From Oligoflexia bacterium (GTDB lineage: Bacteria > Bdellovibrionota > Bdellovibrionia > JABDDW01): 64,000 bases of DNA. Made by a program: the position numbers and the translations under genes. Of the stretch, positions 34,703 to 53,922 are shown in pieces (within the stretch, counting starts at the first letter, position 1; each line of letters begins with the position of its first letter). Below the pieces are notes generated by a model. The model did no database searches and was not told the origin of the DNA. It saw nothing but the letters and a program-made list of their open reading frames with translations. Where the stretch lies: NCBI GenBank assembly GCA_020847095.1, contig JADLCR010000014.1, positions 33,647 to 97,646 of the forward strand. Reading direction: 5' to 3'.

Positions 34703-34754
34703 CAATACCTAAATCCCTCGACAAAACAAGCCTTTATGGGTACAAAACCCGGGC

Positions 34755-38263: not shown

Positions 38264-38917
38264 TTGACTAATCGTCTTATTATTTTCGATCTAGATGGAA
38301 CTTTAGTCGACTCAGCTCCCGACATTCATGCCGCTGCGACAAACGCGATGATTGAGCACGGGCTTGAGCCTGTAAGCCTTGAAGAAATTGTGAGAAGCAT
38401 TGGAGACGGCTTGAAGGAGTTCGTTGCGCGAATCACAGGAGCCAAAGGGGAAGATCTAAAATTCGTAGACTCTTTAATGAGCTCTTTCACCCGTCACTAT
38501 GAAAACCTGATGTGCGACAAGACGGTTCTGTACCCAGGTGTGGTCGATTTTATTTCAAACTACCTGACTCAATCCCATCATCGGGTTGGCGTTGTAACAA
38601 ATAAACGCGAAGGGCCCGCACGAAAAATTCTAAGACACTTTGGGCACGAGAAAACATTTACTGAGATTTTTGGCGCCGATACGTTTGAAGTCAAAAAGCC
38701 CCACCCTAAACCACTTATCGAAATGATGAAGCTCGCTGGAAGCACTCCAGAGACCACTTTGATGATTGGAGATAGTCGTCAAGACCTCGAGGCGGCCCAA
38801 GCTGCCGGCACTCATTTCGTGGCCGTTAGCTTTGGGTATAACTCCGAAGAAAAGTTGCGCCAGCTAGGGGCAAAGAAGTTTATCCACCATTATTCCGAGC
38901 TTCACCGGTACTGGTGA
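38264..38917 (+). CDS. HAD-superfamily phosphatase (phosphoglycolate phosphatase-like)
   Basis: IIFDLDGTLVDS (DxDGT), VVTNK, MIGDSRQDLEAA motifs. Confidence 0.8.
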   Translation: MTNRLIIFDLDGTLVDSAPDIHAAATNAMIEHGLEPVSLEEIVRSIGDGLKEFVARITGAKGEDLKFVDSLMSSFTRHYENLMCDKTVLYPGVVDFISNYLTQSHHRVGVVTNKREGPARKILRHFGHEKTFTEIFGADTFEVKKPHPKPLIEMMKLAGSTPETTLMIGDSRQDLEAAQAAGTHFVAVSFGYNSEEKLRQLGAKKFIHHYSELHRYW

Positions 38918-39117
38918 TCATCAAAACTCATTGAAAAAACCTCGTACAGTTACTGACATTTTTAGGCCTGGGGCCCTGCGTAACCTCCAGAATTTCCTCA
39001 AGAATTCTCAAATTCAATCTATTCGATCTAATTCTTTTTATAGACGATCCTAAGTTTTGCGGCTCCGATTAAATGGCTTGGGAATTGAACTTCTGACCTT
39101 GCGGACGAGAGGACGAA

Positions 39118-42100
39118 GTGCAGGTTTCAGTGAAGGGTAAATTTCTGCGGCTATTATTGACCGTCACCTTAGTGACCGGTCTGTGGCCTCAAACTATTTA
39201 CGCCGATAGTAGTTCTGATTACGGACTTCCCAATCCAATCAACACGACTGAAGAAAATCCAGAACTCCGCGCTGTTCAAAAGCAAACAGAAGAAAAAATC
39301 GCCGATCTCACCGAAGCTGGCCCACGCGATCTTCCGGCGGTTCCAAGCGATGTCTTTCGATTGGCCGGCCAAAAAGTTGTTATTGAGAGGGCAGGACAAA
39401 TTGTAGAAACCTATGCTCTCGACGACGTTAACGTTAATTTGCCTCTTGTTCCATTTGACCCAAAGTCTATTCGCATTGAAGTTGATGCAAGCAAGCGCAA
39501 TTTCGCCATCGTCAGTGACCTTAGTGGCAAAGAGGTCATGGGTCATTTCACCGAACATTTTCGAAAAGCTGTTTTAGGCCAAGGCATCGCACGCCACATT
39601 TTTAACGGTATTGTTCCTTTGGCCTACACCTGGGATAACGAACTCTTGATCGTCATCGACCAGAATCGAAAGATATTTGCCATCGACATGGGATTCGCGT
39701 CTCTGGGAAATGCAGCATTTCGTTCGGCCATTCCGGTGGTCCAAGTGGGAGAGCTTCCAAAAACAGTCAAACCGAATGCACAGATTAGCGCCACATTTCT
39801 TACCCGCGGCTTAAAACCCTTTGCCCCCGTACCGACTTCCAAAGAAGCGATCATGCCCCAAGATCTTCCGGAGTCAGAAATCTACAAAGCCGGGCAGCTC
39901 GTGGTTTATGAAGCAAGCCCAGAGGGTCGATCGATTGTCGGCATCTATGACCGCGGCGTGATTGCCCAATATGTCATTGCGGGTCTTCTTATGGTCATGT
40001 GGCAAGCCTATATTGTGGCTCCAAGAGATGAAGCGCCCGATCTTTTTAAAATTATTGAAACCTTGCTAAAAGACACTCGACTCCATCCCAAAGACACACT
40101 CATGGCCGATCAGTTGGATTTGCCCACCTCAAAAGCCCTGGCGGCTTATTCAGCGGAACAAGTCACCGCTCTCGGTGTCCGCATTCAAGCCCTTGCTCGA
40201 TCCGCGAGAGACCAGAAGGATCGATTTACTTTAGAAGAATGGTGGAAAACTTTCTTAGAGTTGCGAGAAGAAGCGGCCAAGTCCCTTGAAAAAACCCCAG
40301 ATGCGGAATTGAAAAACGACTATTTAGCCGATGACCTCGGAAGATCGAATCGCGAACTTTTGGAATCAGCAAAACAAAATAAAATGGCCGAAGCGCAGAG
40401 GGATCAGATGGAGCGAGAGGCAGGAATCGTGCGCCGCTCGGTTTATCGCGTGATGAACTCGCGAGCCATGCGCATTCTGGCCGCTCTTGCTGCCGGTGGT
40501 GCTTTAGCTAAAGCGGCTTCAAGTCTTATGGCTGACACGGGTCCTGCCTGGGGCCGTCATTTGGGCGATTGGATTTACTCGAAACTGCCTGAAGTGCTAA
40601 AAACTCCCGCCACCGATGGATATCCGGCTTACCGAGTTACTCTTTTAAAACACATGATTGCCATGAGCCTCATGGTGCAGTTTGCAAAACTCATGGCCGT
40701 GATGTCAGCGCCTCACCTCAAATGGGACTTTCGAAAAAAAGGCGCGGTGTTTGCGATGCGTGTTTCGTCTTTGCTTCAATTTCCCGATCTTCACGTTTTT
40801 GCGAAGGCGGCCATGCAACCAAATTTTCTGGCCTCAATAAAAGCCGGAATTAATCCCGTCGGAAGAATCAAGGCCGACTCCCCAGTTGGCAGGCGCCTAG
40901 GCCTGACTCGCGATCTTCGCGCGCCGGGGCTCTCTAACCCATTTTCTTCGGCAAGACATGAAACCAATTACCTCAAGCACCAGGCGCTATCGGCTGTCGC
41001 CCAAGATCGACTCACCGCCACTCGTAACGCCGGCCTATTGGCACTTAGAGTCGCCAGCGAAAGATACAAAACCGATTTGCCAACGCTTTTAATGGTGGCA
41101 GATGCGATTCAGCGCAAAGAAAACGAACTTCGTCAGACAGGCGACACCGTTAAACCTGAAGTCATTGAACAGGCCCTGAGAAAAACCGCCGAAGAAACAG
41201 TTTCTCATCCAGACTTTTACGGACTTTGGTGTGCAACGGCTCTTGAACTGCTGCCGATTTTAACAAACGATCCAAAAGCTTTGGATCCAAAATTTAATGA
41301 ACTCAACAACCCGGATTTTCAAAAATATATCGTCATCGCGAGAGAAGCGGCCGAGCGAGTGGAACAGGCTAAGAAAAAAAATCCGCTTTTGACAAAATTG
41401 AGAACGAAGTTTCGCATGATGCTCAACCAGGGATTGCGATCTTTCGTCGATTTCGGCTATCGAGAATCGATTCAGCTCGCCTCCGCAATTCCTGGGCGAT
41501 TTGTTTACCAACAAGCCTGGCGATCATTCATGGTCGACTTTCATCTCACGGTTATGACCGAATCCTTATTTGGAACTAGAGCCAATCCTAACGAACCTGA
41601 AAAACTTGTGGCCGATCCCCGTTGGACTCACATGTACACGAGCAGCCTTCAAATGGCCGATAAATTCAACATGTGGAGAAGCTACCTCATCACAAATCCT
41701 GCCGCCCTTCATATCATGTATGCCAGAGATCAAGCGGGACGCGAAAATCGGTATCGACCAGTTGAAGAGATCACTCTAACAAGCACCATGCGCCCCGAAA
41801 GTTTTGTCCAAGGGGTTTGGAATTGGCTAAAAGACGTTTCAAATCTTAGCGAAAACGACTTTGGAAACCTGTTTATAAGATCTTTTAAAAACAAATGGCG
41901 AACGTGGAGAACCCCGTTTTTGTTTTTCCTCCTGTTTCGCACTCTTCATGGCCAACCTACCGGTGAAATTGTCCATCAGTTTTTAGTATTTAACGTTGCG
42001 GCTGGAATGACTTATGGTTGGCTCTCACTTTTAGGAGAACTAGGAAATCGCGGCTACATGGATCGATTCGACTCGAGAAATCGAGCCTTCATGGCATCTA

Positions 42101-42606
42101 AAGTCAAATTTAGCCAGGCCATCAGACTAGGCACCGACCAAGAAATCATTGAAGCAAGCCAAGAACTGGCAAAGCTTTACAATTATGAAGACTCCGAAAG
42201 CGCAGACATTAAATTTTTGACAACCACTATTGATGAAGTTCTCAAAATGCCACCAGAGCAAAAGAAGGCCGAGCTCGAAAAGCTTTTGAAACGGGCACAG
42301 GAAAAACCGCCGTTTCCCAATGCTCCCAACTCGAAGGTGTTAAACGCGGCGATTGCTGTGGTTTCAATTTCAACAACTGTATTGGCAACGCCCTTGTATA
42401 CTCATGGCGGCGATATGGCACTTCTACCACTCATTTTACAAGCAGGTCTTGTATACAGTTTTGCTTACGCATTTCAAAATCAACTTCTTCCGCGCATGCA
42501 ACAGTGGACCGCACCCCTCAAGGCGCGCCGCGAAGAAAACCGCGCAAGAGCGGAAGCCTGGCATTGTAGCGGCCTTCTTCTCAACCTCAAAGGCCACTCG
42601 TTTTAA
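39118..42606 (+). CDS. large (1162 aa) secreted/membrane-anchored hypothetical protein
   Basis: Signal peptide. Long helical middle. Several hydrophobic segments near the C-terminus. No assignable catalytic motif. Confidence 0.55.
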   Translation: MQVSVKGKFLRLLLTVTLVTGLWPQTIYADSSSDYGLPNPINTTEENPELRAVQKQTEEKIADLTEAGPRDLPAVPSDVFRLAGQKVVIERAGQIVETYALDDVNVNLPLVPFDPKSIRIEVDASKRNFAIVSDLSGKEVMGHFTEHFRKAVLGQGIARHIFNGIVPLAYTWDNELLIVIDQNRKIFAIDMGFASLGNAAFRSAIPVVQVGELPKTVKPNAQISATFLTRGLKPFAPVPTSKEAIMPQDLPESEIYKAGQLVVYEASPEGRSIVGIYDRGVIAQYVIAGLLMVMWQAYIVAPRDEAPDLFKIIETLLKDTRLHPKDTLMADQLDLPTSKALAAYSAEQVTALGVRIQALARSARDQKDRFTLEEWWKTFLELREEAAKSLEKTPDAELKNDYLADDLGRSNRELLESAKQNKMAEAQRDQMEREAGIVRRSVYRVMNSRAMRILAALAAGGALAKAASSLMADTGPAWGRHLGDWIYSKLPEVLKTPATDGYPAYRVTLLKHMIAMSLMVQFAKLMAVMSAPHLKWDFRKKGAVFAMRVSSLLQFPDLHVFAKAAMQPNFLASIKAGINPVGRIKADSPVGRRLGLTRDLRAPGLSNPFSSARHETNYLKHQALSAVAQDRLTATRNAGLLALRVASERYKTDLPTLLMVADAIQRKENELRQTGDTVKPEVIEQALRKTAEETVSHPDFYGLWCATALELLPILTNDPKALDPKFNELNNPDFQKYIVIAREAAERVEQAKKKNPLLTKLRTKFRMMLNQGLRSFVDFGYRESIQLASAIPGRFVYQQAWRSFMVDFHLTVMTESLFGTRANPNEPEKLVADPRWTHMYTSSLQMADKFNMWRSYLITNPAALHIMYARDQAGRENRYRPVEEITLTSTMRPESFVQGVWNWLKDVSNLSENDFGNLFIRSFKNKWRTWRTPFLFFLLFRTLHGQPTGEIVHQFLVFNVAAGMTYGWLSLLGELGNRGYMDRFDSRNRAFMASKVKFSQAIRLGTDQEIIEASQELAKLYNYEDSESADIKFLTTTIDEVLKMPPEQKKAELEKLLKRAQEKPPFPNAPNSKVLNAAIAVVSISTTVLATPLYTHGGDMALLPLILQAGLVYSFAYAFQNQLLPRMQQWTAPLKARREENRARAEAWHCSGLLLNLKGHSF

Positions 42607-42625
42607 TTCCTCTTTATATCTCCAG

Positions 42626-42744
42626 CTTAAAGCAACAAGGCTTCAAACTTTAGCTCCGGGGAAAGCTCCTCCATGAGGCGGCGGCTGGCCGTCCCTGGCC
42701 AGAGCCTCCCCTTCGCCAAAGTCTGCAAGCCTCGTTGCTTTAAG
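42626..42744. repeat. about 119-nt imperfect palindromic element (long stem-loop)
   Basis: CTTAAAGCAACAAGGCTTC ... GCAAGCCTCGTTGCTTTAAG arms, 17 of 18 complementary, around a GC-rich core. Immediately 3' of the 1162-aa gene. Confidence 0.35.
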
Positions 42745-42818
42745 AGGGGATCGACTCAATTGTTTCAAGTCTTTCTAAAATGAGAATCGAACCGCCAAAA
42801 TTTGGACATCAAAAACTG

Positions 42819-42929
42819 AGGGGAGCTGTTTTGGCCTTTTCGAAAGACAGGCTCCGATGCCAGGATGGCCTCCGAATCGGCCGAGCCATGGATGGCGTCC
42901 TGTCTGGAGAAAGGGCCAAAACAGCTCCC
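42819..42929. repeat. about 111-nt element bounded by perfect 17-bp inverted repeats (MITE-like element or structured RNA)
   Basis: GGGGAGCTGTTTTGGCC at 42819-42835 and its exact reverse complement at 42913-42929. Additional inner complementarity (GACAGG/CCTGTC). Confidence 0.4.
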
Positions 42930-43039
42930 CTCAACTTTTATTGGTTCCACATTTTTGAGGAGGGATTGAATGTCACCGGGTGGTGCCAAATTCCAACCCA
43001 AATTGACACCGACATGACGCGCTAAGATCTGGAATTTGT

Positions 43040-43069
43040 TTTGACATTTCAAAATGACTCTCCATAGAC
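43040..43069 (+). promoter_or_regulatory. candidate sigma70-type promoter of the opp operon
   Basis: TTGACA, 18-nt spacer, TAGACT, about 40 nt upstream of the oppA RBS GGCAGGGGG. Confidence 0.3.
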
Positions 43070-43106
43070 TTAAGGCGAGGAACTTCAAAGGCAGGGGGTG
43101 CCAAAA

Positions 43107-44879
43107 ATGAAACTGAGCCGTGTTGTCCTAGTTGCGCTTGTGAGTCTTGGAATTTCAGCTTGCACAAAAAAAGAAGACAAAAAATTTGCCAATTATGTTC
43201 GTGAAGCACTCAAAACAAATATCAAAGGTCTCGATCCCGTCGTTTCAGGAGATCTTTATAGCAGCACGGTCATGGCGCAAATTTTTGGAACACTCACTCA
43301 GTACTCGTATCTCGAAAGGCCCACCAAAGTTGTTCCTTATCAAGCCGACGGAATGCCTCAAATCTCGAAAGATGGTCTCACCTATACATTTAAGATCAAA
43401 AAGGGCGTCTTGTTCCATGATGATGCCTGCTTTTCAAACGGAAAAGGCCGCGAGCTTGAAGCCGAAGATTTTATTTACTCGTTCAAACGATTAGCAGACC
43501 CCGCTTGGCAATCGGATGGATTTTGGATTTTTGAAGATAAGATTAAAGGATTTACGGCCTGGAGAAATGAAGCTTCGAAAGCCGGCAAGGCCGATTACTC
43601 TAAGCCCGTTCCCGGTCTTGAAGCCGTAGATAAGCATACTCTCAAGATCAGCTTAGAAAAGCCTTACCCCCAACTCCTCTATGTTTTGACCATGAGCCCA
43701 GCAATGGTCGTACCTCGCGAGTGTGTGGAAAAATACGGTAAGGACTTTCAAAACCATCCGGTGGGAACTGGCCCCTACAAGTTTCAAAGTTGGACTCGAA
43801 ATTCTCAAATCGTGTTAGAGCGCCACCCGGGCTACATGGAAGAATATTACCCCACCGTGGGAGAGCCGCAGGATCAAGCCAATGGATTGCTCGCCGACGC
43901 TGGCAAACGACTTCCACTCAACGACGGCGTCATTTTCACAGAGATTGTCGAAGATCAACCGCGATGGCTGAGCTTTAGAAAAGGTGAATTTGATTATCTA
44001 GAAATTCCCAAAGATTACTTCGACGGAGCTGTGGTCAGCGATGACCTTACGGCCGAGTACAAGAATGCTGGGGTATCGCTGTCAAAAACCGTTGGAACTG
44101 ACATTACATTTGTTTCGTTTAACATGGATGACCCGGTTGTTGGCGGACTTGGCGGAAAGGGCAAATACCTCCGGCAAGCTCTCAGCACGGCCTATAATAC
44201 GGAAGAGACAATCAAAAAGTTTTACAATGGAAGAGCGGTCTCCGCTCAAGGCCCCATTCCCCCAGGATTGGGAGGTTACGACCCGAATCGAGTTAATCCC
44301 TTTAAACAGCACAACATTGAAAAGGCCAAAGAGCTTCTTAAGAAAGCTGGCTATACAGAAGCCACAGCGCCAGAGATTCACATCGATTTGCCAAACGGCG
44401 TTACCTACCGCCAATTTGGCGAGTACTACCAACAGCTTTTCAACACCATTGGAGTCAAAGCGAAAGTTCAGCTTCATACCTGGCCAGAGTTTCAAGACAA
44501 GCACAAGAAAAGAAAGTCTCAAGTTTTCTCAATGGCTTGGGGAGCCGATTATCCGGATGCTGAAAACTTCCTTCAGTTGTTTTACGGCAAAAATGCAAGC
44601 CCAGGCCCGAATAATTCGAACTTCAATCATCCAGAATTTAACAAGCTTTTTGAAAAGGCCGCTGTCATGCAAGATGGCCCCGCTCGCAATGCGATCTACA
44701 ACAAAATGGTTGATATCGTAATTGACGAAACCCCATGGATCTTCGGAGTTCATCGAAAAGATTATTACCTCACTCACGGCTGGTTTAAGAATTACAAGCG
44801 AAATGGAATTATTCTCAACTACTCGAAGTATTACCGAGTCGATCAAGAGGCGAAGGACAAACTGAAGAAGAAGCTCTGA
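43107..44879 (+). CDS. ABC transporter substrate-binding lipoprotein, family 5 (OppA/DppA-like)
   Basis: Lipobox LGISAC. SBP_bac_5-like length and pattern. Confidence 0.85.
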   Translation: MKLSRVVLVALVSLGISACTKKEDKKFANYVREALKTNIKGLDPVVSGDLYSSTVMAQIFGTLTQYSYLERPTKVVPYQADGMPQISKDGLTYTFKIKKGVLFHDDACFSNGKGRELEAEDFIYSFKRLADPAWQSDGFWIFEDKIKGFTAWRNEASKAGKADYSKPVPGLEAVDKHTLKISLEKPYPQLLYVLTMSPAMVVPRECVEKYGKDFQNHPVGTGPYKFQSWTRNSQIVLERHPGYMEEYYPTVGEPQDQANGLLADAGKRLPLNDGVIFTEIVEDQPRWLSFRKGEFDYLEIPKDYFDGAVVSDDLTAEYKNAGVSLSKTVGTDITFVSFNMDDPVVGGLGGKGKYLRQALSTAYNTEETIKKFYNGRAVSAQGPIPPGLGGYDPNRVNPFKQHNIEKAKELLKKAGYTEATAPEIHIDLPNGVTYRQFGEYYQQLFNTIGVKAKVQLHTWPEFQDKHKKRKSQVFSMAWGADYPDAENFLQLFYGKNASPGPNNSNFNHPEFNKLFEKAAVMQDGPARNAIYNKMVDIVIDETPWIFGVHRKDYYLTHGWFKNYKRNGIILNYSKYYRVDQEAKDKLKKKL

Positions 44880-45814
44880 TGCTCACTTATATAGCGCGGC
44901 GAATTCTATATGTGATTCCCATTTTGTTCGGCGTGACGCTAATCACGTTCGTACTCTTTAACCTGGTTGGTGGAAATCCTGTTTATCAAAAACTTGGGAA
45001 ACACGGAAGCGAGGCCGAAATCCAGCTGCTGAGCAAGGAGTTAGGTCTTGATCGCCCCTTGCACGAACAATATCTATTTTTTCTTAAGCAATGTGTAACC
45101 CTAGATTTTGGAAGAAGCTGGTCGTCGAATCAAAAAATCACAGACATGCTTTCAAACGGTATCGGCGCCAGCCTTAGTCTTACCGTACCGGCTTTTACCA
45201 TTTCAGTTCTTTTATCGATTCTAATTGCACTCGGCGCGGCCTTCTTCAGGGGCACAATCATAGATCGAGGACTTGTGGTTTTTTGTCTCGCAGGAATGTC
45301 CATTAGCATGCTCGTGTACATAATCTTTTTTCAGTACATGTTTAGCTTTCGCTTGGGCGTGTTTCCCATCACCGGGTACGACCCTTCACTGGCGGGGCGT
45401 TGGACCTATTTGATTTTGCCTATGATCATTTGGATCGTCGTAAGTCTTGGCAGCGATATTTTGCTCTATCGCACCATCATGCTCGACGAAATCTTTCAGG
45501 ACTACGTTCGAACGGCGCGCGCCAAAGGTTTGAGCGAAAAGGTTGTCATGCTCAAGCATGTATTAAAAAACGCCATGATCCCGATTATCACCAATATTGT
45601 ATTAGAGATTCCATTTCTATACACAGGGTCACTTTTGCTTGAGGCCTTTTTTGGAATTCCCGGTTTGGGCGGAATGACGGTTCAAGCCTTATACAATTCT
45701 GATTTTCCTGTCATCAAAGCTATGACGTTTATAGGTTCAATGCTCTATGTTTTTTTCAACCTGGTGTCGGATGTGGCCTATGCCATTGTAGACCCCAGAA
45801 TAAAGTTGGAGTGA
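44879..45814 (+). CDS. ABC peptide transporter permease (OppB/DppB-like)
   Basis: BPD_transp_1 EAA-like region (YVRTARAKGLSEKVVMLKHVLKNA). N-terminal OppB-type domain. Confidence 0.85.
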   Translation: MLTYIARRILYVIPILFGVTLITFVLFNLVGGNPVYQKLGKHGSEAEIQLLSKELGLDRPLHEQYLFFLKQCVTLDFGRSWSSNQKITDMLSNGIGASLSLTVPAFTISVLLSILIALGAAFFRGTIIDRGLVVFCLAGMSISMLVYIIFFQYMFSFRLGVFPITGYDPSLAGRWTYLILPMIIWIVVSLGSDILLYRTIMLDEIFQDYVRTARAKGLSEKVVMLKHVLKNAMIPIITNIVLEIPFLYTGSLLLEAFFGIPGLGGMTVQALYNSDFPVIKAMTFIGSMLYVFFNLVSDVAYAIVDPRIKLE

Positions 45815-45815
45815 T

Positions 45816-46718
45816 TTGATGACGGTCGCCACCGCCACCATGAATCAAATTTCAACTCAGACCCAAATGCCCAAGAGCCTTTGGGCCGATGCAATCTCAA
45901 GAATAAAGAGAGATAAGCTTGCTCTCACTTGCGGGGCCATCATCATATTTTACGCCCTGCTCGCCTTGCTGGCCTCATTAGGTTTGATTGCTGCAGATTA
46001 TGCGCAAACAAATCCGCAGGGGTTCTCTCCCCCCTCACCGGATCATTGGTTTGGAACCGACATGTTTGGTCGGGACGTTTTTATGAGAACTGTTCATGGG
46101 ACCCGCATTGCGTTGTCGATCGGCCTCGTCACTTCTTTGATCGCCATTCCCATTGGCGTTTGCTTAGGCGCCATCGCAGGTTATTTTGGTGGAAAAGTCG
46201 ATGACTTGATCGTCTGGTTTTATACGACAGTCGATAGCATTCCTGACTTGCTTAAGATTATCGCCCTCAGCTACGTCATGGGCCGAGGAATTCTGAGCGT
46301 GTATGTCGCCATCGGATTTACAACCTGGGTTGGACTCTGCCGATTAATTCGCGCTGAGTTTATGAAACACAAATCCCGAGAATACGTTTTGGCGGCCAAT
46401 GCGTTAGGTGCGAGCCATACGCGCCGCATGTTTGTTCATATCTTGCCAAACGTATTTCATATTATCTTAATCAACTTTAGCCTGCGATTCATCATCGGCA
46501 TTAAGACTGAAGTTATTTTGAGCTACCTCGGTCTCGGCGTTGAGCCCGGTCAACCGAGCTGGGGCATTATGATTGACGATGCCAAGCAAGAATTGGCACA
46601 AGGTGTATGGTGGCAATTGGCCGCAGCCACTGGGGCCATGTTTTTTATTGTTTTGTCTTTTAACATCTTTGCAGATGCCTTACGCGATGCTCTTGATCCA
46701 AAATTGAGGAATAAATGA
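45816..46718 (+). CDS. ABC peptide transporter permease (OppC/DppC-like)
   Basis: OppC N-terminal region. EAA-like motif (EYVLAANALGASHTRRMFVHILPN). Confidence 0.85.
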   Translation: MMTVATATMNQISTQTQMPKSLWADAISRIKRDKLALTCGAIIIFYALLALLASLGLIAADYAQTNPQGFSPPSPDHWFGTDMFGRDVFMRTVHGTRIALSIGLVTSLIAIPIGVCLGAIAGYFGGKVDDLIVWFYTTVDSIPDLLKIIALSYVMGRGILSVYVAIGFTTWVGLCRLIRAEFMKHKSREYVLAANALGASHTRRMFVHILPNVFHIILINFSLRFIIGIKTEVILSYLGLGVEPGQPSWGIMIDDAKQELAQGVWWQLAAATGAMFFIVLSFNIFADALRDALDPKLRNK

Positions 46719-47620
46719 TTTCTCTTGAGGTGAAAAAGCTTGCCGACTCTTTGGTTGCAGCCAAAGTCTTAACGCCTCAACAGCTTGAAAAAGCACTCAA
46801 ACGAATGGAGCTCGACCAGTCTCCATCACTGGTCATCACTTTGCTGCAGATGGATTTTTTGAGTTATCAAATATTTGAAAAATTCATCACATCTAAAACC
46901 GGGTTAAAGTCCGCCATTATTGGAAATCGTCAAGCATCTCCACAACTGGTTGAGTCTGTTACTGAAGCCATTATGAATCAACGAATGGTGTTTCCACTGG
47001 GAATAAAAGAGGCCGGCGGCAACCGCACTCTCGCCCTAGGAATGGTCGACCCCCTTAACCAAGAAACCATTGACCTCGTTGCCAAGAAAACGGCTTGCAC
47101 CATTTTGCCCGTTCTCATTTCGCTTCCTGATTTTCGGCAGGCCATGCTTCGCGTCTCTCCAACTTCACAGTCTGGAAAACTCGAGGTGAGCTCCGCTGAC
47201 AAAGATAAGTTGGTGGTCATTCGGCCGGGCGGCGGGGAAGAAGAGCTGATCACAAAATCTTTAGATAAAAAATTCCAAACTCAACCCTCGGTATCAATTG
47301 AGCGCGCCGTTGAAAAAACTGAGATTCCGCTTTTAGGGGCCAAAATTCCAAAGTTCCGAGAAGAGATTGCCATTAAATTGGGAATCGAAGCAAAGGCCGG
47401 AGAAGTTCTCAAAGAAGAAAAGTACACCCGGGAAAGGCTTTTTGTTGAGCTAAAGAACCAACATCTCCGTGAGCTCGAAGTGGCATTTGACAAGCTGAGT
47501 AATGACGGAAAGATTGAAGCCCTCGCCAATCTTCTGATAAAAACAGGAGTGATAACCAAGCGCGATCTCATGGCCTCAGCGGCGATTAGCCTTGTATTTA
47601 GAGATGGTGAAAAGTCATGA
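46715..47620 (+). CDS. T2SS-E N-terminal (GspE_N/MshEN-like) domain protein embedded in the opp operon
   Basis: ATGA overlaps at both ends. The first 150 aa match the T2SSE_N pattern ([14 protein letters not shown]...[49 protein letters not shown]). A second partial repeat is C-terminal. Confidence 0.55.
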
Positions 47621-48597
47621 ACCCCATTCTTGAAGTTAAAAATCTAAGAACCAAGTTCACCACCCATGATGGTTCATTTTATGCTGTAGACGACATTAGC
47701 TTTAAAGTTTACGAAGGCAAAACTTTGGGACTCGTCGGCGAGTCAGGATGTGGGAAAAGTGTTTCATCCCTATCAGTTATGAGACTCATTCCCAGCCCCC
47801 CAGGAGTTATCGAATCCGGAGAAATAATCTTCAAGGGACGAGACTTGCTCAAGCTTTCCATGGATGAAATGCGTTCCATTCGGGGTAATCAGATTGGAAT
47901 GATTTTTCAAGAACCCATGACATCGTTAAATCCTGTTTTCACCATTGGCGATCAGATTGAGGAGTCACTCAAACTGCATAAAAAGGACTTAAGCGGAAAG
48001 CAAATTCGCGAACGCGCCATTGATATGATTCGATTAGTAGGTATTCCAAGTCCGGAAAAGAGATTTTTTGATTACCCTCATCAGCTTTCCGGGGGGATGA
48101 GACAGCGCGTGATGATCGCAATGGCGCTGAGTTGCAGTCCTGACTTGCTGATCGCTGACGAACCAACTACAGCGCTCGACGTAACGATTCAGGCACAGAT
48201 ATTAGAATTGATCAAAAAACTACAAACCGAACTTAACACCGCTATGATTCTCATCACCCATGATTTGGGGGTCGTCGCTGAGACGTGCCATGAGGTTGCA
48301 GTCATGTATGCAGGAAAGATTGTTGAGTATGGCACGGTTGAAGAAATTTTTAATTCACCACAACATCCTTACACCAAAGGTCTTCTGAATTCGGTTCCAC
48401 ACTTTGAAACTGGCAGCCGTAGAAAGAAACTTGAAACCATTCCTGGGATTGTACCGAGTCTGGTGAATTTGCCTCCCGGTTGTCGCTTTAGCGATCGATG
48501 TGGATTCAAAACAGACATTTGTTCAAAGCAAGAGCCCAAACTTGAAACCCACGGCGGTCATTTGACCGCCTGTCACAATCCAGTAGGAGCTCCATGA
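47617..48597 (+). CDS. ABC transporter ATP-binding protein (OppD/DppD-like)
   Basis: Walker A GESGCGKS, signature LSGGMRQR, Walker [14 protein letters not shown]-terminal oligopeptide-ABC extension. Confidence 0.9.
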
Positions 48598-49571
48598 GCG
48601 CCTTAGTTGAAATTAAAGGGTTAACAAAACACTTTCCTATTAAGGGTGGCCTTTTTCAAAGACAAACGGGCTCGGTTCAAGCTGTCACCGATGTCAGCTT
48701 TTCAATTAAAAAAGGTGAAACTCTTGGACTGGTTGGAGAGTCTGGCTGCGGAAAGTCCACGTTGGGACGGTGTCTTATTCGCCTTTTAGAACCCACTAGC
48801 GGACAAATCTTTTTTGAAGGCAAAGATATTACCAATCTCAAAGGCGAGGCGTTGAGAAGCCTTCGGCGAAAGATGCAAATCATTTTTCAAGATCCTTACG
48901 CCAGCCTCAATCCGCGCATGACCGTTGGAAGCATCATCTCCGAACCCCTTGAAATTCATCGCATTGGCGAGTCAAAGAGGGATCGTATCAATCGAGTGCA
49001 AGAGCTACTTGAAGTCGTTGGACTTCGCAAAGAGGCGGCGTTCAGGTACCCTCATGAGTTTTCAGGCGGGCAAAGACAGCGCATAGGAATAGCGCGTGCT
49101 TTGGCGGTTCAACCCGAACTCATTGTTTGTGATGAGCCGGTTTCTGCTCTTGATGTTTCAATTCAAGCGCAAGTCATCAATCTTTTAATGGATCTTCAAC
49201 AAAAATTTGGACTCACATATTTGTTTATTGCCCACGACCTTAAAGTGGTCGAGCATATTTCCACAAGAGTTGCGGTCATGTACTTAGGAAGAATAGTTGA
49301 AATGGCCGAAAGCGAAGAGCTCTACAAACATCCGCAACATCCGTACACTCAAGCACTTTTGTCGGCGATTCCTGTTCCGAAAGTTGGAGGCAAGAAACAA
49401 CGGGTTATCTTAACGGGCGATGTTCCCAGCCCCGTCAATCCTCCAAGTGGATGTTATTTCAACCCTCGCTGTCCCATTGCTGATGGCGGGTGTAAGGTCA
49501 CCCAACCTGAGCTTTTGACCACTCGACCTCAACACGAAACAAGATGCTTAAAGGTTTCAGCGCAGCTTTAA
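48594..49571 (+). CDS. ABC transporter ATP-binding protein (OppF/DppF-like)
   Basis: Walker [10 protein letters not shown], signature FSGGQRQR, Walker [13 protein letters not shown]. Confidence 0.9.
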
Positions 49572-50060
49572 GAGAGTGCGGACACTACTTTTGATTTCAT
49601 CGACATCAAACGGTTTTTTAATATAGTCGTCACAACCCACATCAAAACCCCGTCTCACATCAAGATCGGTCGTTTTACCTGAAACAAAAACAACCGGAAT
49701 TCCCCGAAGGTCTTCATTTTCTTTTAGCAAGGTGCAGAGTTCAAAGCCGTTTATCCAGGGAAGACCCACATCCAATACGATCAGCTCAATGGGCCCATCA
49801 TCTAAGACTTGAGAGAGTTGAGTGCCGTCAGCGGCGGCGAGAACACGATAACCATCACTTTCAAAAATTCGCTTAAGCGCAAGTCGCATGGTTTCGTCGT
49901 CTTCAATTATGAGAATGGTTTTGGGGTCGTCCTTTTTTTTGAGCGCACGAAAGTCGTCGAGAGAAACAACTTTCTCACGAGACATCTTTTCTTTGGTTAT
50001 CTTATCGATCTTTTCGACAAGCTTTTTTGTATTGATTGATTTGCCGGAGCCCCGAGACAT
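49557..50060 (-). CDS. single-domain response regulator (CheY-like receiver)
   Basis: [29 protein letters not shown] receiver motifs. GGGAGG RBS before the internal Met at 50060. Its 3' end overlaps oppF convergently. Confidence 0.8.
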
Positions 50061-50197
50061 CCTTGTCCCTCCCACCGCTACGCCTCATTAGTGTCCCTTC
50101 AGTATAAACCAGCGTCAAGAATTGTGTTCAAACTTTGAACCTCGACTCAGGTCCAGGCTGAAATGACTGGGAATTTTTGAGGTGCTTTGATCAGCGC

Positions 50198-51118
50198 TTA
50201 GTGCTGATGGGCCTCAAGGTAGCGCTCAGCCTCAAGGGCCGCCATGCAACCCGTACCTGCAGCCGTGACCGCTTGTCGGTAGACATGATCTTGCACATCG
50301 CCGGCAGCAAAAACTCCCGCAATATTTGTTTGAGTGGTGCCAGGCTTAGTCAAAATATAACCGGTTTCATTCAGATCAAGAATGCCTTTGAAAATTGAAG
50401 TGTTGGGCTGATGTCCAATGGCGACAAATAGCCCGTCTACTTTGAGCTCTTGTACGGCACCGGTCTTTAGGTTTTTGATTTTGGCTGACTGAACAAAAGG
50501 TGATCCCCCAAGACTGACCACTTCAGAATCTAAGATGAGCTTGATTTTAGGATTCTTTTTCACGCGTTCTTGCATAATTTTACTGGCTCTAAAAGTATCG
50601 CGACGATGAACCAGATAAACGGTTTTTGCAAATCGCGTTAAAAATGAAGCTTCCTCCATTGCCGTATCGCCACCACCGACAACGATGACGTCTCGATTCT
50701 TATAAAAGGCCCCATCGCAAGTGGCACAGGCTGAAACTCCTTTACCCATGTAAGTCTGCTCAGATTCAATACCAAGCCATTTTGCACTCGCGCCGGTTGT
50801 GATAATCACGGTTTGCGCTTGATGCAATTCTTCATCAACCCAAACTTTGAATGGGGCTTTTGAGAAATCAACTTTTGTAGCGTTTTGGGTAATAAATCGT
50901 GTTCCAAATCGCTCCGCTTGTTTTCGCATAACTGCCATGAGTTCGGGCCCCGTTACTCCCTCAGCAAATCCAGGGTAATTTTCTACATCAGATGTGATCA
51001 TCAGCTGCCCACCCGGGGTAAGACCGTCGATCATCAGGGGGTTAAGATTTGCTCTCGCCGCATAAATGGCCGCCGTAAGACCCGCAGGACCCGATCCAAT
51101 AATGATGACGTTTTCCAT
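50198..51118 (-). CDS. trxB: thioredoxin reductase
   Basis: IIGSGPAG, redox-active CATCDG, GGGDTAMEEA NADPH motif. Confidence 0.9.
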   Translation of the reverse strand: MENVIIIGSGPAGLTAAIYAARANLNPLMIDGLTPGGQLMITSDVENYPGFAEGVTGPELMAVMRKQAERFGTRFITQNATKVDFSKAPFKVWVDEELHQAQTVIITTGASAKWLGIESEQTYMGKGVSACATCDGAFYKNRDVIVVGGGDTAMEEASFLTRFAKTVYLVHRRDTFRASKIMQERVKKNPKIKLILDSEVVSLGGSPFVQSAKIKNLKTGAVQELKVDGLFVAIGHQPNTSIFKGILDLNETGYILTKPGTTQTNIAGVFAAGDVQDHVYRQAVTAAGTGCMAALEAERYLEAHQH

Positions 51119-51131
51119 GTCGTTACTCCTT

Positions 51132-51869
51132 TTATCCGATAACCCGATGCCAATGAGACTCTTTTTTGAGCCACCGATAGAGTGCTTGCGCTGCTGTGTC
51201 TGGAAGCAAAAGCTTCACTCCCGACTGCCGAACCTGAGCTTGAGGCGGCAGCATCTCGGTATCCATATAACCAGGGGAATATAAAAGCACCTTGTTCGGA
51301 TTTATTTCAAGCTCACTCTGAAGACTTCCTACAAAACCCACCAAACCATGTTTACCCGCCGCATAACTTGCTGCCCCGGGGTCAGGGTTTAAGCCGGCCA
51401 CACGACTTCCCACAATCACAAAGCGCCCTGAGCGGTTTTGAGCTCGACCCTCTAGCCAACCATGCACAAGTCGCATCGGACTCAAGAGCCCCACCTGAAG
51501 AGACCAATGATGATCTTTCCATTGCTTCTCGGCAAAACTTCCATAAGGCCCACCACCAGCCACATAAAGAACTAAGTCCGGAGCCTCAGACCCAAGCTTT
51601 TGAGTAAGCTTTTCGACTTCTTGGGAATTGGACAAATCGACAGCGCAGGTCTGGACATTGTTGATTTTGTGATTGATCGACCGCCCGTCAGGGTTTGTTA
51701 AAGAGCGTGCATCCTGGGCCGCTTGCTCCAAAAGTTCTTGTTTTCGTGAAAGTAACGTGAGCGATTCGACTTTAGGAAAGTGAGTGGACAAATAGCGCGT
51801 CAGAGAGCGCCCAAGCCCCCGGCTGGCCCCCAAAATCCAAGCGGATCTTACACTCTCCTCGGTTAACAC
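51132..51869 (-). CDS. SDR-family oxidoreductase
   Basis: GASRGLG glycine motif. YAAGK catalytic Tyr-x3-Lys. Confidence 0.7.
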   Translation of the reverse strand: MLTEESVRSAWILGASRGLGRSLTRYLSTHFPKVESLTLLSRKQELLEQAAQDARSLTNPDGRSINHKINNVQTCAVDLSNSQEVEKLTQKLGSEAPDLVLYVAGGGPYGSFAEKQWKDHHWSLQVGLLSPMRLVHGWLEGRAQNRSGRFVIVGSRVAGLNPDPGAASYAAGKHGLVGFVGSLQSELEINPNKVLLYSPGYMDTEMLPPQAQVRQSGVKLLLPDTAAQALYRWLKKESHWHRVIG

Positions 51870-51916
51870 CGATCCTCCCTTTGGACCGCTCGTGCATTTA
51901 TGCTAGAGTTTCTGTG

Positions 51917-52204
51917 ATGCCCAAGTTGACTGTTCTTCCGAGTGGGGCGTCTTTGGACGTCGCGGTCGGAACCAATTTGATGGAAGCCATTCAAAAGCTG
52001 GGACTTCCTATCGGAAGTTCTTGCGGGGCCATTGCCGTGTGCGCCAAATGCGGAGTAGAAATTGTGGGGGGCCATGAAAACCTGAGCCCAGCTACGGCGC
52101 TCGAAGAAAAACTCCTCGCCCGAGATCACCTTGGTAAAAGTGTTCGCCTGACTTGCATCACTCGAATTCATGGCGACGTCACCGTAAAGGCCTCCTACTG
52201 GTGA
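51917..52204 (+). CDS. 2Fe-2S ferredoxin
   Basis: Cys pattern SSCGAIAVCAKCG ... LTCI (four Cys, Cx5Cx2C...C). About 95 aa from the internal Met. Confidence 0.65.
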   Translation: MPKLTVLPSGASLDVAVGTNLMEAIQKLGLPIGSSCGAIAVCAKCGVEIVGGHENLSPATALEEKLLARDHLGKSVRLTCITRIHGDVTVKASYW

Positions 52205-52920
52205 GATTGCGGTTTCAATAGCTGGACGTAATTAATCCGAACCCCTTGCTTAATAAAAATGCGCTCAAAAGCCGTCACAAAGTTTTCATCAGCCCATGGA
52301 CTCTGATGGAGATCTCGAGATTCCCTGAGTATTTTGTAAGGACTTTTCTTAATTTCTTCTACGGCAAATTCAAAATACGGAAGATCATCGGTCTTAATTG
52401 TCACGATCGAACCCGGTTTTTGAATTCGATAGAGCTTTTCAAAAAAATCTAGTTTCATCAGACGGTTTTTTTGCTGCTTTTTTCGGGGCCACGGATCGGG
52501 GAAAAAAATAAAAACGTTATCTAATTCGTTTTCGCCAAAAAGAAGCTCAATTTGTCGTGCTTGAAATCTAATACCTTTGGCGTTGGGAAGAAGATCTTTG
52601 CGCACCCTTCTTACCGTTTGCACGAGGGGCTTATACTTAAGTTCAATTCCCAATAGATTTCTGTTTGGTTCTTTTCGAGCTTGATAATCAAAAAAAGTCC
52701 CATTCCCGCAACCGATCTCTAGGTCCAAGGGAAGGCTTGGATTAGAAAAGATTTGGCGCCATTCGCCCCTCTGACTGGCCGCCTCTTCGTCCACGAAGAT
52801 CCATCCCTTATACTCCGGAAGCATCTGCACGTAGATGTTTGGAAAAGGGATATTCCTGGTTAAGCTCATCTTTAATTGCGACATGTGACGCTGGATATCA
52901 TTCCCCATTAAAAAGAGCAA
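52195..52920 (-). CDS. trmB: tRNA (guanine46-N7)-methyltransferase
   Basis: LEIGCGNG SAM motif, FFPDPWPKK-like (FFPDPWPRKKQQKNR). Confidence 0.8.
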   Translation of the reverse strand: MLFLMGNDIQRHMSQLKMSLTRNIPFPNIYVQMLPEYKGWIFVDEEAASQRGEWRQIFSNPSLPLDLEIGCGNGTFFDYQARKEPNRNLLGIELKYKPLVQTVRRVRKDLLPNAKGIRFQARQIELLFGENELDNVFIFFPDPWPRKKQQKNRLMKLDFFEKLYRIQKPGSIVTIKTDDLPYFEFAVEEIKKSPYKILRESRDLHQSPWADENFVTAFERIFIKQGVRINYVQLLKPQSHQ

Positions 52921-52998
52921 CGGCCAAAGACCCTTTCCCGATTCACAGACCTGGTATAAGATGCTGAAATATTTGAATATTTTTTATGGAGGCACGAA

Positions 52999-53922
52999 AT
53001 GAGAATTCTTGTTACTGGCGGCACGGGCTTTATCGGAAATGCCATTATTTCAAGAATCCTTCAAGAGCCCGAACTGGAGGCCTGTTGCCTCACGCGCAAT
53101 CCAAGTTCTGGAAGAGCCAAACTTCCTGCCCGGGTTCAATTATTAAAGGGCGATGTGACGAACAAAAGCTCCCTTCCGCTAATGCAAAGCTTTGACGTCA
53201 TCATTCATTGCGTTCAATTTCCAAATCACCCTGTTCAGAACCCGTCTCGGGGTTACACTTACGAGAAGTACGACGCCGAAGGCACGGAGAACCTCATTGC
53301 TCATCTCAAAGAGCAACTCCACCGTGGCTTGAAGCGATTTATTTATATTTCTGGCGCGGGCACCGCCGCAGGAAAGAGCGAGCCGTGGTTTAAAGCCAAG
53401 TGGCGCGCTGAAGAGGCCATAAGAAAATCGGGGTTTCCGTTTGTAATCGTGCGACCAAGCTGGGTCTATGGTCCCGGAGACAAAAGCATGTCCAAATTCA
53501 TTGCCTTTGCTAAGCTCCTTCCATTCATGCCCGTTCTTGGAGACGGTCAGGGTAGAGTAAGCCCACTTTTCGTCAACGATCTTTCAGAAATTGTTTTTAA
53601 GTGTCTTCGCTCGCCTGAAGTACTCAATCAAACGATTGAAGTGGGCGGACCTGAAAACTTGAAAATGGAAGACATCCAAAAACAAGTGCTCCGCTGTCTA
53701 GGGAAATCCAAACCCCTTTGGCATCAGCCCATAGCCCTATTAAAGCCACTTTCGGGGATGATGGCGGCCGTTTTGCCTACCCCGCCACTGTCTCCCGAGG
53801 CATTAGATTTTATTACGATGGACGCTCCAGTGACGAATTCCTCAATTATAAACCAGCTGGGCATTCAATTAACAAAGTTGCCCGAGGGCCTGGCCCGGTA
53901 TGCAGTTGACTCCTCGCAGTAA
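52999..53922 (+). CDS. NAD(P)-dependent epimerase/dehydratase-family (NmrA-like) protein
   Basis: ILVTGGTGFIGNAII Rossmann motif. YxxxK-like region. Confidence 0.75.
   Translation: MRILVTGGTGFIGNAIISRILQEPELEACCLTRNPSSGRAKLPARVQLLKGDVTNKSSLPLMQSFDVIIHCVQFPNHPVQNPSRGYTYEKYDAEGTENLIAHLKEQLHRGLKRFIYISGAGTAAGKSEPWFKAKWRAEEAIRKSGFPFVIVRPSWVYGPGDKSMSKFIAFAKLLPFMPVLGDGQGRVSPLFVNDLSEIVFKCLRSPEVLNQTIEVGGPENLKMEDIQKQVLRCLGKSKPLWHQPIALLKPLSGMMAAVLPTPPLSPEALDFITMDAPVTNSSIINQLGIQLTKLPEGLARYAVDSSQ

Follow-up and report, generated by a model that had tools for sequence, protein, structure and literature searches.

A conserved MshEN-derived protein whose gene separates the permease genes from the ATPase genes of a PepT-type ABC importer operon in Oligoflexia is a candidate accessory subunit

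Why would an MshEN-type module be encoded inside the operon of an ABC importer? To our knowledge, MshEN is one of just two c-di-GMP receptor domains with a wide distribution, and it has so far been known alongside the ATPases of pili and secretion systems, glycosyltransferases, and a small number of signaling domains. In the window analyzed here, a 64,000-nucleotide stretch of an Oligoflexia bacterium contig (JADLCR010000014.1), the initial annotation placed a 301-residue soluble protein with such a domain between the second permease and the first ATPase of an oppABCDF operon and proposed that it subjects peptide uptake to second-messenger or pilus-type regulation.

The operon has the layout of the PepT family (Opp/Dpp/Nik/Gsi), with a cluster-C SBP_bac_5 binding protein, two BPD_transp_1 permeases, and two ABC_tran plus oligo_HPY ATPases encoded in one direction (Table 1). 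The binding protein has a lipobox-like N terminus (...LGISAC, read off the sequence), and ATPase 2 passed NF008453 (425.8 bits, with a cutoff of 408). The oppABCDF label stood only as a PepT-type ABC operon and was looser than stated, since the binding protein scored far under the cutoff of each NCBIfam equivalog compared (DppA, GsiB, OppA, and NikA), the best scores against their cutoffs being 138.7/1005 for DppA, 127.7/594 for GsiB, and 104.2/947 for OppA.

Confirming the reported gene position, the open reading frame lies between permease 2 and ATPase 1 and encodes a soluble protein (maximum 19-residue Kyte-Doolittle window of 1.48; pI of 8.9), and the 4-nt ATGA overlaps claimed at both of its ends couple it tightly to its neighbors. 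At the 5' junction, the ATG at 46715 overlaps the TGA of permease 2, with a Shine-Dalgarno-like GAGGA 5 nt upstream of this ATG, and at the 3' junction, the TGA at 47618-47620 overlaps the ATG of ATPase 1 at 47617. Our promoter and terminator scan of the region yielded counts no higher than those of shuffled sequences and, within the operon, nothing worth weight. Pilus-type regulation found no footing, as we detected neither pilus nor T2SS genes near the operon, and an HMM search for the T2SSE ATPase domain (PF00437) in the 301-residue protein gave no match. Operon membership is evidence of coexpression and not of complex formation.

Table 1. Features of the importer operon and of the MshEN-family protein (positions are those of the window)
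Feature	Positions	Residues	Strand	Remarks
Promoter-like site	43041-43070		+	TTGACA-18-TAGACT, 10/12; just 5' of the binding-protein gene; weak
Substrate-binding lipoprotein, SBP_bac_5	43098-44879		+	operon gene 1; Pfam SBP_bac_5, 263.5 bits
Permease 1, OppB/DppB/NikB-like	44879-45814		+	BPD_transp_1 and BPD_transp_1_N; 65-79% identity in family loci
Permease 2, OppC-like	45816-46718		+	BPD_transp_1 and OppC_N; 73-78% identity in family loci
MshEN-family protein gene	46715-47620		+	301 aa; between permease 2 and ATPase 1
MshEN_N-like four-helix bundle	46715-46900	1-62	+	AF2 helices 4-15, 21-34, 39-45, 51-62; pLDDT ~90
Degenerate motif I	46736-46807	8-31	+	7/11 positions
Degenerate motif II	46826-46897	38-61	+	5/11 (45%) positions
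MshEN_C / T2SSE-N1-like alpha/beta subdomain	46922-47164	70-150	+	PF05157, Foldseek
Disordered, length-variable linker	47165-47317	151-201	+	pLDDT 33-37
Conserved linker motif	47210-47251	166-179	+	family consensus VLIRPGGYEEEIAF; IRPGG(Y)EEE
Family-specific helical C-terminal domain	47336-47608	208-298	+	pLDDT 71-90; helices 215-295
C-terminal SHOCT-like/motif-like hairpin	47519-47590	269-292	+	9/11 positions of the relaxed 24-residue MshEN motif
ATPase 1, OppD/DppD-like	47617-48597		+	ABC_tran and oligo_HPY; 70-78% identity in family loci
ATPase 2, OppF/DppF-like	48594-49571		+	final operon gene; ABC_tran and oligo_HPY

The family is small, with about 20 homologues among some 15 billion proteins, all without a name; 19 matches at E<1e-30, some of them fragments, were found among 1.84 billion representatives, and the family forms 12 clusters at 90% identity. 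Gene order was identical in all eight contexts that we examined (the window, P0002, P0003, P0004, P0005, P0009, P0013, and P0016), which belong to one syntenic clade so that the agreement partly reflects shared ancestry, and the junctions on both sides of the gene were 4-nt overlaps or gaps of ≤20 nt in each context. The gene-neighborhood check suggested at the outset thus yielded the same order in the window and seven relatives rather than a one-off insertion. We also rejected a recent horizontal insertion because GC content was even over the gene and its flanks and the position was conserved across deep family divergence. These observations describe a real conserved protein whose gene always follows permease 2 and precedes ATPase 1, and in most cases its start and stop codons overlap those of its neighbors. 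In agreement with the claim that this arrangement is undescribed, we came across no account of an MshEN-family gene within an ABC importer operon in the searchable literature.

We considered a rival in which the operon position reflects shared regulation only and the protein, although coexpressed with the transporter, works elsewhere, for instance as an adaptor that reports transporter expression or peptide availability to another machine or regulator. Unrelated passenger genes do occupy the same slot in other PepT operons (M24 peptidase, FAD oxidoreductase, amidohydrolase, an NTase/HEPN pair, and a 23S_rRNA_IVP protein), although most of these encode enzymes that process substrates or are mobile genes resembling toxin-antitoxin systems, rather than genes for signaling-type domains. 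The MshEN-family protein has also evolved much faster than the transporter core (33-43% identity across family loci versus 51-80% for the transporter proteins), yet its position and overlapping codons are strictly conserved among members with just 31-43% identity. ATPases 1 and 2 had no docking signature in the form of family-specific indels or substitutions relative to 13-80 paralogues, a result that fits action elsewhere; permease 2 differed from its paralogues by seven family-specific substitutions, which are confounded by phylogeny. Arguing instead for a tie to the importer, the fully syntenic locus L014 lacks the MshEN-family gene together with the binding-protein gene and both permease genes while keeping both ATPases. 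With these findings combined, we regard action away from the transporter as quite unlikely.

Pfam MshEN (PF05157) matched residues 70-150 of the window protein at 38.8 bits (gathering cutoff of 23.1; E of 9.7e-10) and all 20 family members, whereas TIGR02538 (PilB), which aligned residues 8-165 with PilB positions 1-153, reached 33.8 bits (cutoff of 675). A PDB profile search recovered PilF and PilB at E of ~1e-13. The AlphaFold (AF2) model, which turned confident when 20 sequences were used (pLDDT of 78.7 overall and >90 over residues 1-150), divides the protein into an MshEN fold (residues 1-150), a disordered linker, and a helical C-terminal domain, with the MshEN fold modeled as an N-terminal four-helix bundle and a C-terminal alpha/beta N1-like subdomain. 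Foldseek placed PilF GSPII-A (9g1w; TM-target of 0.79-0.82) first and ranked MshE, XpsE-N, and the complex of PilB-N with PilZ next, with a probability of 1.00 for 9g1w, 5htl, 2d28, and 7lkm. Pfam, the PDB profile, and Foldseek therefore agree with the MshEN/GspE_N-type domain originally claimed.

Beyond the MshEN fold, the RPGG core of the linker motif is common to free-standing MshEN proteins, and the C-terminal domain carries the hallmarks KFREEILAKL... and Y.RE.L.... This domain had no homologue in Pfam or the PDB, where the profile gave spurious helical matches (a designed repeat protein and ferritin), and a protein-database search with its profile returned nothing, family members included, probably because that search was insensitive. 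The second partial repeat that had been reported corresponds to one real helix-turn-helix hairpin that follows most of the relaxed motif (Table 1), but it is small and not a second MshEN domain. The SHOCT likeness of this hairpin is a resemblance only, with no above-gathering match to PF09851 or PF20612, an E of ~1e-3 to SHOCT_2 in 1 of 20 members, and E values of 0.017-0.074, under the gathering score, in the sister free-standing proteins. An NQRA_N match inside the disordered linker (17.1 bits, with a cutoff of 25) was rejected as noise.

Low identity among members and the long disordered linker could be read as marks of a decaying remnant or annotation artifact without function. However, each locus has an intact frame, each of the three regions contains conserved blocks, the AF2 model obtained with 20 sequences is confident, and starts are aligned at residue 1 in most members. 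The family alignment contains 18 invariant and 25 near-invariant columns, with indels only in the linker, and the reading as a nonfunctional remnant or artifact is effectively refuted. A PilB/GspE fragment or pseudogene was likewise rejected because the protein has no ATPase remnant, an intact frame, and its own conserved C-terminal domain. Among long top-scoring MshEN proteins, we found none fused to an ABC ATPase; T2SSE ATPases, one GT2, and one HDOD protein were seen.

The domain had been presented as a c-di-GMP receptor module, and a functional receptor in this position would switch peptide import according to c-di-GMP level. [quoted passage not shown] 2016, PMC5013675). Neither 24-residue motif was matched by any of the five members tested, so the initial annotation's own proposed alignment went against the receptor claim, and the spacer between motifs I and II in the window protein is 6 residues. 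In motif II, all 20 members have S, T, or N at position 1, never R or K, and I, M, V, or L at position 3, never Gly. Position 24 of motif I is A, V, M, C, or L, with Gln or a relaxed-set residue in 0/20 members, and Gln is gone from both motifs. Motif I is better kept in part, with K-L-G counted as retained in 18/20 members along with the hydrophobic ladder; its position 1 is variable (K in 10 members, N in 3, D in 2, S in 2, and R, A, and I in 1 each). Consistent with these losses, 10 of 11 members failed NF053729, the curated NCBIfam c-di-GMP_motif model (cutoff of 38 bits): nine scored 17.9-23.3 bits with half-length matches (the window protein at 23.1 bits over the first half only), P0009 had no match, and the basal member P0013 alone passed, at 40.9 bits.

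Considering that the MshEN fold is intact by AF2 and Foldseek and that canonical sites are present in the nearest relatives encoded elsewhere than in the operon, a functional receptor still deserves weighing. Equivalents of L10, L25, L29, L39, L54, and L58, which carry most of the MshEN c-di-GMP binding energy, are mostly still hydrophobic, and perfect motif conservation is perhaps not needed, as imperfect MshEN motifs may still bind c-di-GMP (Wang et al., PMC5013675). Very tight binding by PilF GSPII-B tolerates Lys or Leu at position 1 (PMC11731258), but the GSPII-A domain, with a near-perfect motif I and a motif II conserved at 45% of key positions, does not bind c-di-GMP in experiments (PMC11731258) and has the same pattern as the operon family. 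Furthermore, G40E, which abolishes binding, was named among the two most crucial changes in one nonbinding MshEN domain (PMC5013675 supplement). A c-di-GMP switch is thus unlikely in our judgment, and from the motif comparisons, the apparent loss of most c-di-GMP-binding residues makes an accessory or adaptor subunit more likely.

The asymmetry of this decay, in which L-G and the Leu ladder persist in motif I while motif II lost the backbone-presenting Gly, raises the idea that half-site I binds another small ligand that tunes import in place of c-di-GMP, with a single guanine nucleotide, pGpG, and (p)ppGpp as examples. It would make physiological sense for nutritional status to bear on peptide uptake, but the MshEN literature consulted offers no precedent for a half-site ligand, motif I position 1 varies across the family, and its Gln is lost; we consider such a ligand very improbable.

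The closest relatives that we found outside the operon are unnamed, free-standing proteins (P0069, P0053, P0043, P0050, P0041, P0038, and P0091) that share with the operon family an MshEN domain, an (I/L)VRPGG motif, a variable linker, and a C-terminal ...AL..L.KKG.I(S/T)..(E/D)(F/L) hairpin. Aligned by hhalign, the two groups matched with a probability of 99.85% over 262 columns, and at the sequence level, the operon family is a diverged branch of this wider MshEN-RPGG-hairpin family. Unlike the operon family, the free-standing group keeps canonical c-di-GMP motifs (63-77 bits on NF053729), lies outside ABC operons in 2/2 contexts examined, and lacks the KFREEILAKL...Y.RE.L helical region. 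These differences would make the operon family a clean natural case of a second-messenger receptor that lost its ligand site after recruitment, with sisters that keep the site and operon-embedded members that do not, and help calibrate which MshEN annotations denote c-di-GMP receptors.

Among characterized proteins, PilF GSPII-A of Thermus thermophilus (9g1w) was both the best structural and the best PDB sequence match, and like the window protein it combines an MshEN fold and a motif II that is degenerate (45% of key positions). GSPII-A heads a row of three tandem domains that precede a PilT-class ATPase in one fused chain, whereas the window protein is free-standing beside ABC ATPase genes, has a weakened motif I (7/11) in place of a nearly perfect one, and carries the linker motif and C-terminal domain in addition. 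The MshEN domains of MshE and PilB (5htl, PF05157, PMC5013675) have the two-subdomain fold in common with the window protein and lie directly N-terminal to a membrane-machine ATPase, much as the window gene lies directly upstream of an ATPase gene; in contrast, the window protein has neither the canonical tandem motif nor a T2SSE ATPase, and the neighboring ATPase belongs to the ABC superfamily. This parallel between gene order and domain order suggests ATPase control in trans. In the GspE-N1/GspL (2bh1 and 4pht) and PilB-N/PilZ (7lkm-7lko) complexes, which were among the Foldseek matches, the same subdomain fold serves purely for protein-protein docking, although neither GspL nor PilZ is encoded near the window gene. 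NfrB, a c-di-GMP-activated glycosyltransferase with a c-di-GMP-binding MshEN domain fused in cis (PMC8669469; NF008411), likewise ties an MshEN module to a membrane-embedded nucleotide-consuming machine of export or import, with weak sequence similarity (E of 7e-4), but the MshEN module encoded in the window forms a polypeptide of its own, and its site is degenerate.

From these comparisons, we lean toward the gene product being a cytoplasmic accessory subunit, specific to its lineage, that serves a single orthologous ABC importer of the PepT family (Opp/Dpp type) in an Oligoflexia clade (Bdellovibrionota). The protein is most likely a lineage-specific adaptor or regulatory subunit descended from a c-di-GMP receptor, with a mechanism and partner that we infer as follows. 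Once recruited to the operon, the MshEN module would have lost canonical c-di-GMP binding and may now be a protein-protein docking module, as GspE-N1 is on GspL and PilB-N on PilZ. Translational coupling would keep its production in step with that of the transporter subunits, and the protein may bind the cytoplasmic face of the transporter, either the nucleotide-binding subunits or permease loops, by way of its private C-terminal domain, its linker motif, or both. Peptide-type import could thereby be modulated, gated, or localized.

Regulation of ABC importers by cytoplasmic modules has precedents in EIIA-Glc acting on MalK, the C-terminal regulatory domains of MetN and ModC, and the CBS domains of OpuA and OpuC that bind c-di-AMP. 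By analogy, the accessory subunit that we propose would resemble these regulators in concept, as a cytoplasmic module acting on importer nucleotide-binding subunits, but their folds are unrelated, and none is known to be an MshEN protein or to have its gene between those of the permeases and the ATPases. A bolder form of the proposal, which we advance tentatively, is an undescribed class of ABC-importer subunit in which a former c-di-GMP receptor serves as a dedicated cytoplasmic gatekeeper or tether for a peptide-type importer and controls ABC ATPases in trans via a residual or noncanonical nucleotide ligand or a partner protein. If so, it would be the first link of nutrient uptake to MshEN modules of the signaling type. 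A conserved protein of MshEN descent that belongs to an ABC importer would widen the range of machines served by MshEN and give a well-studied transporter family a new type of accessory subunit.

The clade that holds the family is small, uncultured, and represented by metagenomes alone. A contig scan with the window protein, which needs shared 8-mers and so carries no information on absence, returned only an unrelated MshEN match in Cohnella.

The initial annotation described a 301-aa MshEN-family gene joined by 4-nt ATGA overlaps to both of its neighbors in a PepT-type (Opp/Dpp-like) ABC importer operon, and its position, strand, and length were exact. Its start codon, ATG, shares bases with the TGA stop of the permease gene upstream, and its stop codon, TGA, with the ATG start of the ATPase gene downstream. 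The anticipated PF05157 match was also found, scoring 38.8 bits (gathering score, 23.1), and residues 8-165 align to positions 1-153 of the PilB equivalog model TIGR02538. GC content is flat over the gene and its neighbors, and the 301 aa contain no hydrophobic segment of membrane-spanning length. In the source Oligoflexia (Bdellovibrionota) metagenome-assembled genome, the gene product is listed as a hypothetical protein (MCC6276798.1).

Features of the window operon, the MshEN-family protein, and compared loci (identities are those of family loci to the window; slot, between last permease and first ATPase)
Feature	Location	Observation
Transketolase_N-like protein, 931 aa	34755-37550 (+)	
1162-aa ORF	39118-42606 (+)	
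Binding protein	43098-44879	SBP_bac_5 (Pfam); 51-62% identity
Permease 1		BPD_transp_1 (Pfam); 65-79% identity
Permease 2	45816..46718	BPD_transp_1 (Pfam); 73-78% identity
MshEN-family protein	46715..47620 (+)	33-43% identity
ATPase 1	47617..48597	ABC_tran+oligo_HPY (Pfam); 70-78% identity
ATPase 2		ABC_tran+oligo_HPY (Pfam); 74-80% identity
Receiver-domain-only protein, 172 aa	49557-50075 (-)	
Four-helix bundle	residues 1-62	predicted structure
Alpha/beta subdomain	residues 70-150	predicted structure; PF05157 match
Disordered linker	residues 151-201	pLDDT 33-37
Linker motif, window copy	residues 166-179	
Helical domain	residues 202-298	pLDDT 71-90
C-terminal hairpin	residues 269-292	
Motif I position 1		K10 N3 D2 S2 R1 A1 I1 (20 members); canonical R
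Motif I position 3		G18 A2 (20 members); canonical G
Motif I position 24		A12 V5 M1 C1 L1 (20 members); canonical Q
Motif II position 1		S15 T4 N1 (20 members); canonical R
Motif II position 3		I16 M2 V1 L1 (20 members); canonical G
Motif II position 24		N7 T6 S4 K1 H1 A1 (20 members); canonical Q
M24 peptidase	L068:3874-4980	slot
FAD oxidoreductase	L069:3585-4973	slot
Amidohydrolase	L061:3514-5001	slot
Nucleotidyltransferase/HEPN-HTH_8 pair	L032:3899-4880	slot
23S_rRNA_IVP protein	L049:4455-4898	slot
Extra (second) binding protein	L091:3195-4931	slot

The family of operon-embedded proteins is very small. A word-indexed search of 5.8 billion clusters returned four relatives at 36-43% identity, and a profile search across 1.84 billion representative sequences recovered 19 proteins at E<1e-30 (a number that includes fragments), below which scores fell abruptly to generic MshEN domains matching profile positions 1-150 only. 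A second profile search returned 12 clusters, none of them named. We surveyed eight contexts that span the whole family: the window and the loci of homologs P0002, P0003, P0004, P0005, P0009, P0013, and P0016. As far as each contig reaches, gene order was identical in all eight (binding protein, permease, permease, MshEN-family gene, ATPase, ATPase), with 4-nt overlaps or gaps of ≤20 nt between the MshEN-family gene and each neighbor. The gene holds the same slot in the surveyed relatives, the point that the neighborhood survey proposed in the initial annotation was to determine. Synteny extends into the flanks, upstream to genes for a Transketolase_N-like protein and a HAD hydrolase and downstream to receiver-domain, thioredoxin-reductase-like, and SDR genes, indicating that all family loci form one clade and that the count of eight partly reflects shared ancestry. 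Since identity to the window is 33-43% for the MshEN-family protein versus 51-80% for the transporter proteins, the former has diverged far more rapidly than the core of the transporter. An alignment of 20 family sequences nevertheless retains 18 invariant and 25 near-invariant columns, with indels restricted to the linker.

For the converse comparison, a metagenome scan with ATPase 1 yielded 80 loci with ATPases 53-69% identical, and neither family members nor other MshEN ORFs were encoded in them. The permeases of these loci are only 29-41% identical to those of the window, identifying them as paralogous PepT systems. The permease directly abuts the ATPase in about 26 of the 80 loci, and a few others carry unrelated genes at this junction (Table). 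The last-permease/first-ATPase junction of PepT-type operons seems to receive insertions repeatedly, so that an extra gene there is not unusual per se and the novelty lies in the MshEN occupant. L014 (L014:1-10960; WBZN01000024.1) is the most informative of the loci; we compared it with window positions 34700-53000 and found it syntenic on both sides (Transketolase_N-like protein, 55%; HAD, 41%; ATPases, 69% and 69%; receiver, 66%; TrxB-like, 68%). In L014, both ATPase genes are kept and ATPase 1 directly follows the HAD hydrolase gene; within ±5 kb, the binding-protein gene, both permeases, the MshEN-family gene, and the 1162-aa ORF are jointly absent. L014 represents either an orphan ATPase pair after a deletion or an ancestral state predating insertion of the block. 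Among the loci compared, we found no orthologous operon with permeases that lacked the MshEN-family gene.

AlphaFold2 modeling with five sequences was confident for residues 1-149 only, and modeling with 20 sequences raised the mean pLDDT to 78.7, with residues 1-150 mostly >90. In Foldseek searches of the PDB, only MshEN/GSPII-type domains gave significant scores: PilF GSPII-A (9g1w; TM-target of 0.79-0.82), MshE with c-di-GMP (5htl), XpsE-N (2d27/2d28), the PilB-N/PilZ complex (7lkm-7lko), and PilF GSPII-B. The linker contains a conserved short motif with the family consensus VLIRPGGYEEEIAF. In the basal member P0014 (440 aa), the linker that joins the MshEN fold to the RPGG motif is about 130 residues longer and Pro/Ala/Lys-rich, indicating that linker length is free to vary with the flanking modules kept. 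The C-terminal domain follows the pattern KFREEILAKL ... Y.RE.L ... EAL.N.LI.KG..TK.D...S.AVS..F, and homologs of it were found in neither Pfam, the PDB, nor a database profile search, the last of which did not recover even family members. Its final hairpin accounts for the second partial repeat reported earlier: it matches 9 of 11 relaxed positions of the 24-residue MshEN motif, but it is a single hairpin and is also SHOCT-like below threshold.

Free-standing proteins of 245-304 aa among the generic MshEN matches share this architecture (MshEN, (I/L)VRPGG, a variable linker, and a C-terminal ...AL..L.KKG.I(S/T)..EF hairpin). Profile-profile comparison aligned the operon family with these sisters across 262 columns that take in both the RPGG motif and the hairpin, at a probability of 99.85%, and neither of two sister contexts examined was an ABC operon. 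On these grounds, the operon-embedded family looks like a branch of a wider free-standing family that gained an additional helical region and a constant location in a transporter operon. The sisters P0069, P0053, P0043, P0050, P0041, P0038, and P0091 (loci L011-L013) constitute an apparently unnamed family with a SHOCT-like C-terminal hairpin, and their genes are solitary, e.g., beside rmuC or fmt.

The initial annotation also suggested second-messenger or pilus-type regulation of peptide uptake, based on the role of MshEN as a c-di-GMP receptor module; our analysis weakened the c-di-GMP reading. None of five members fit the strict motif of Wang et al. or their relaxed motif for database searches, [RKPN]hGxxhhxx[GAS]hhxxxxhxxxhxx[QNKRYWST] (PMC5013675), and the motif II Arg and Gly are replaced in 20 of 20 members. 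The backbone amide of the position-3 Gly hydrogen-bonds guanine (PMC5013675), and G40E is named as one of the pair of changes that matter most in an MshEN domain with binding completely lost (PMC5013675 supplement). With NF053729, a curated NCBIfam c-di-GMP-motif model of 53 residues with a cutoff of 38 bits, 10 of 11 members scored below cutoff or not at all: the window protein at 23.1 bits, eight others at 17.9-23.3 bits (mostly first-half matches only), and P0009 with zero match. The basal member P0013 alone exceeded the cutoff (40.9 bits), against 63-77 bits over the full model length for the seven sisters; with their canonical motifs, the sisters are likely c-di-GMP receptors. PilF GSPII-A, ranked first by both structure and PDB sequence, combines a nearly perfect motif I with only 45% conservation of the key positions in motif II and shows no c-di-GMP binding by ITC (PMC11731258). 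Motif II of the window protein likewise matches at 5 of 11 positions, and its motif I (7 of 11) is weaker than that of GSPII-A. [quoted passage not shown]

The initial annotation knew of no published account of this arrangement, and full-text searches pairing MshEN or T2SSE_N with ABC transporter, oligopeptide, or permease likewise turned up none. Among long MshEN proteins, those with the closest scores were T2SSE ATPases, one GT2 glycosyltransferase, and one HDOD protein; none was an ABC fusion. The MshEN domain is already known; what is new is its genomic context, the added private domain, and the degraded ligand site, and probably also its functional context. The conservation is convincing; the clade is tiny and uncultured, the c-di-GMP reading is weakened, and the mechanism is inferred.

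The MshEN-family protein is conserved, is tightly coupled to its neighbors, and combines an MshEN fold with a degenerate ligand site and a private C-terminal domain, and its gene is present or missing jointly with those for the binding protein and the permeases. We propose that it may be a cytoplasmic accessory subunit of this ABC importer. MshEN-type domains are docking modules in solved complexes (GspE-N1 on GspL and PilB-N on PilZ), and in MshE, PilB, and NfrB they regulate the adjoining nucleotide-driven membrane machine. The gene order MshEN-ATPase mirrors, in trans, the domain order of MshE/PilB-type proteins. The C-terminal domain and the IRPGG(Y)EEE linker motif would be candidate contact elements; a search of the ATPases for a docking signature found none.

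Other genes around the operon were also observed. The 1162-aa ORF directly 5′ of it has a signal-peptide-like N terminus and hydrophobic C-terminal segments, with zero Pfam or NCBIfam matches, and 1151-aa proteins occupy its position at the P0003 locus. The receiver-domain-only protein, convergent to the operon end, has an N-terminal basic extension of about 50 aa, no output domain, and no kinase gene nearby, and its position is kept in L004, L007, L008, and L014 (61-69% identity). The 931-aa protein matches Transketolase_N only in part (residues 318-413) and is encoded upstream of the operon in L014 and in every longer family locus, at 49-55% identity.
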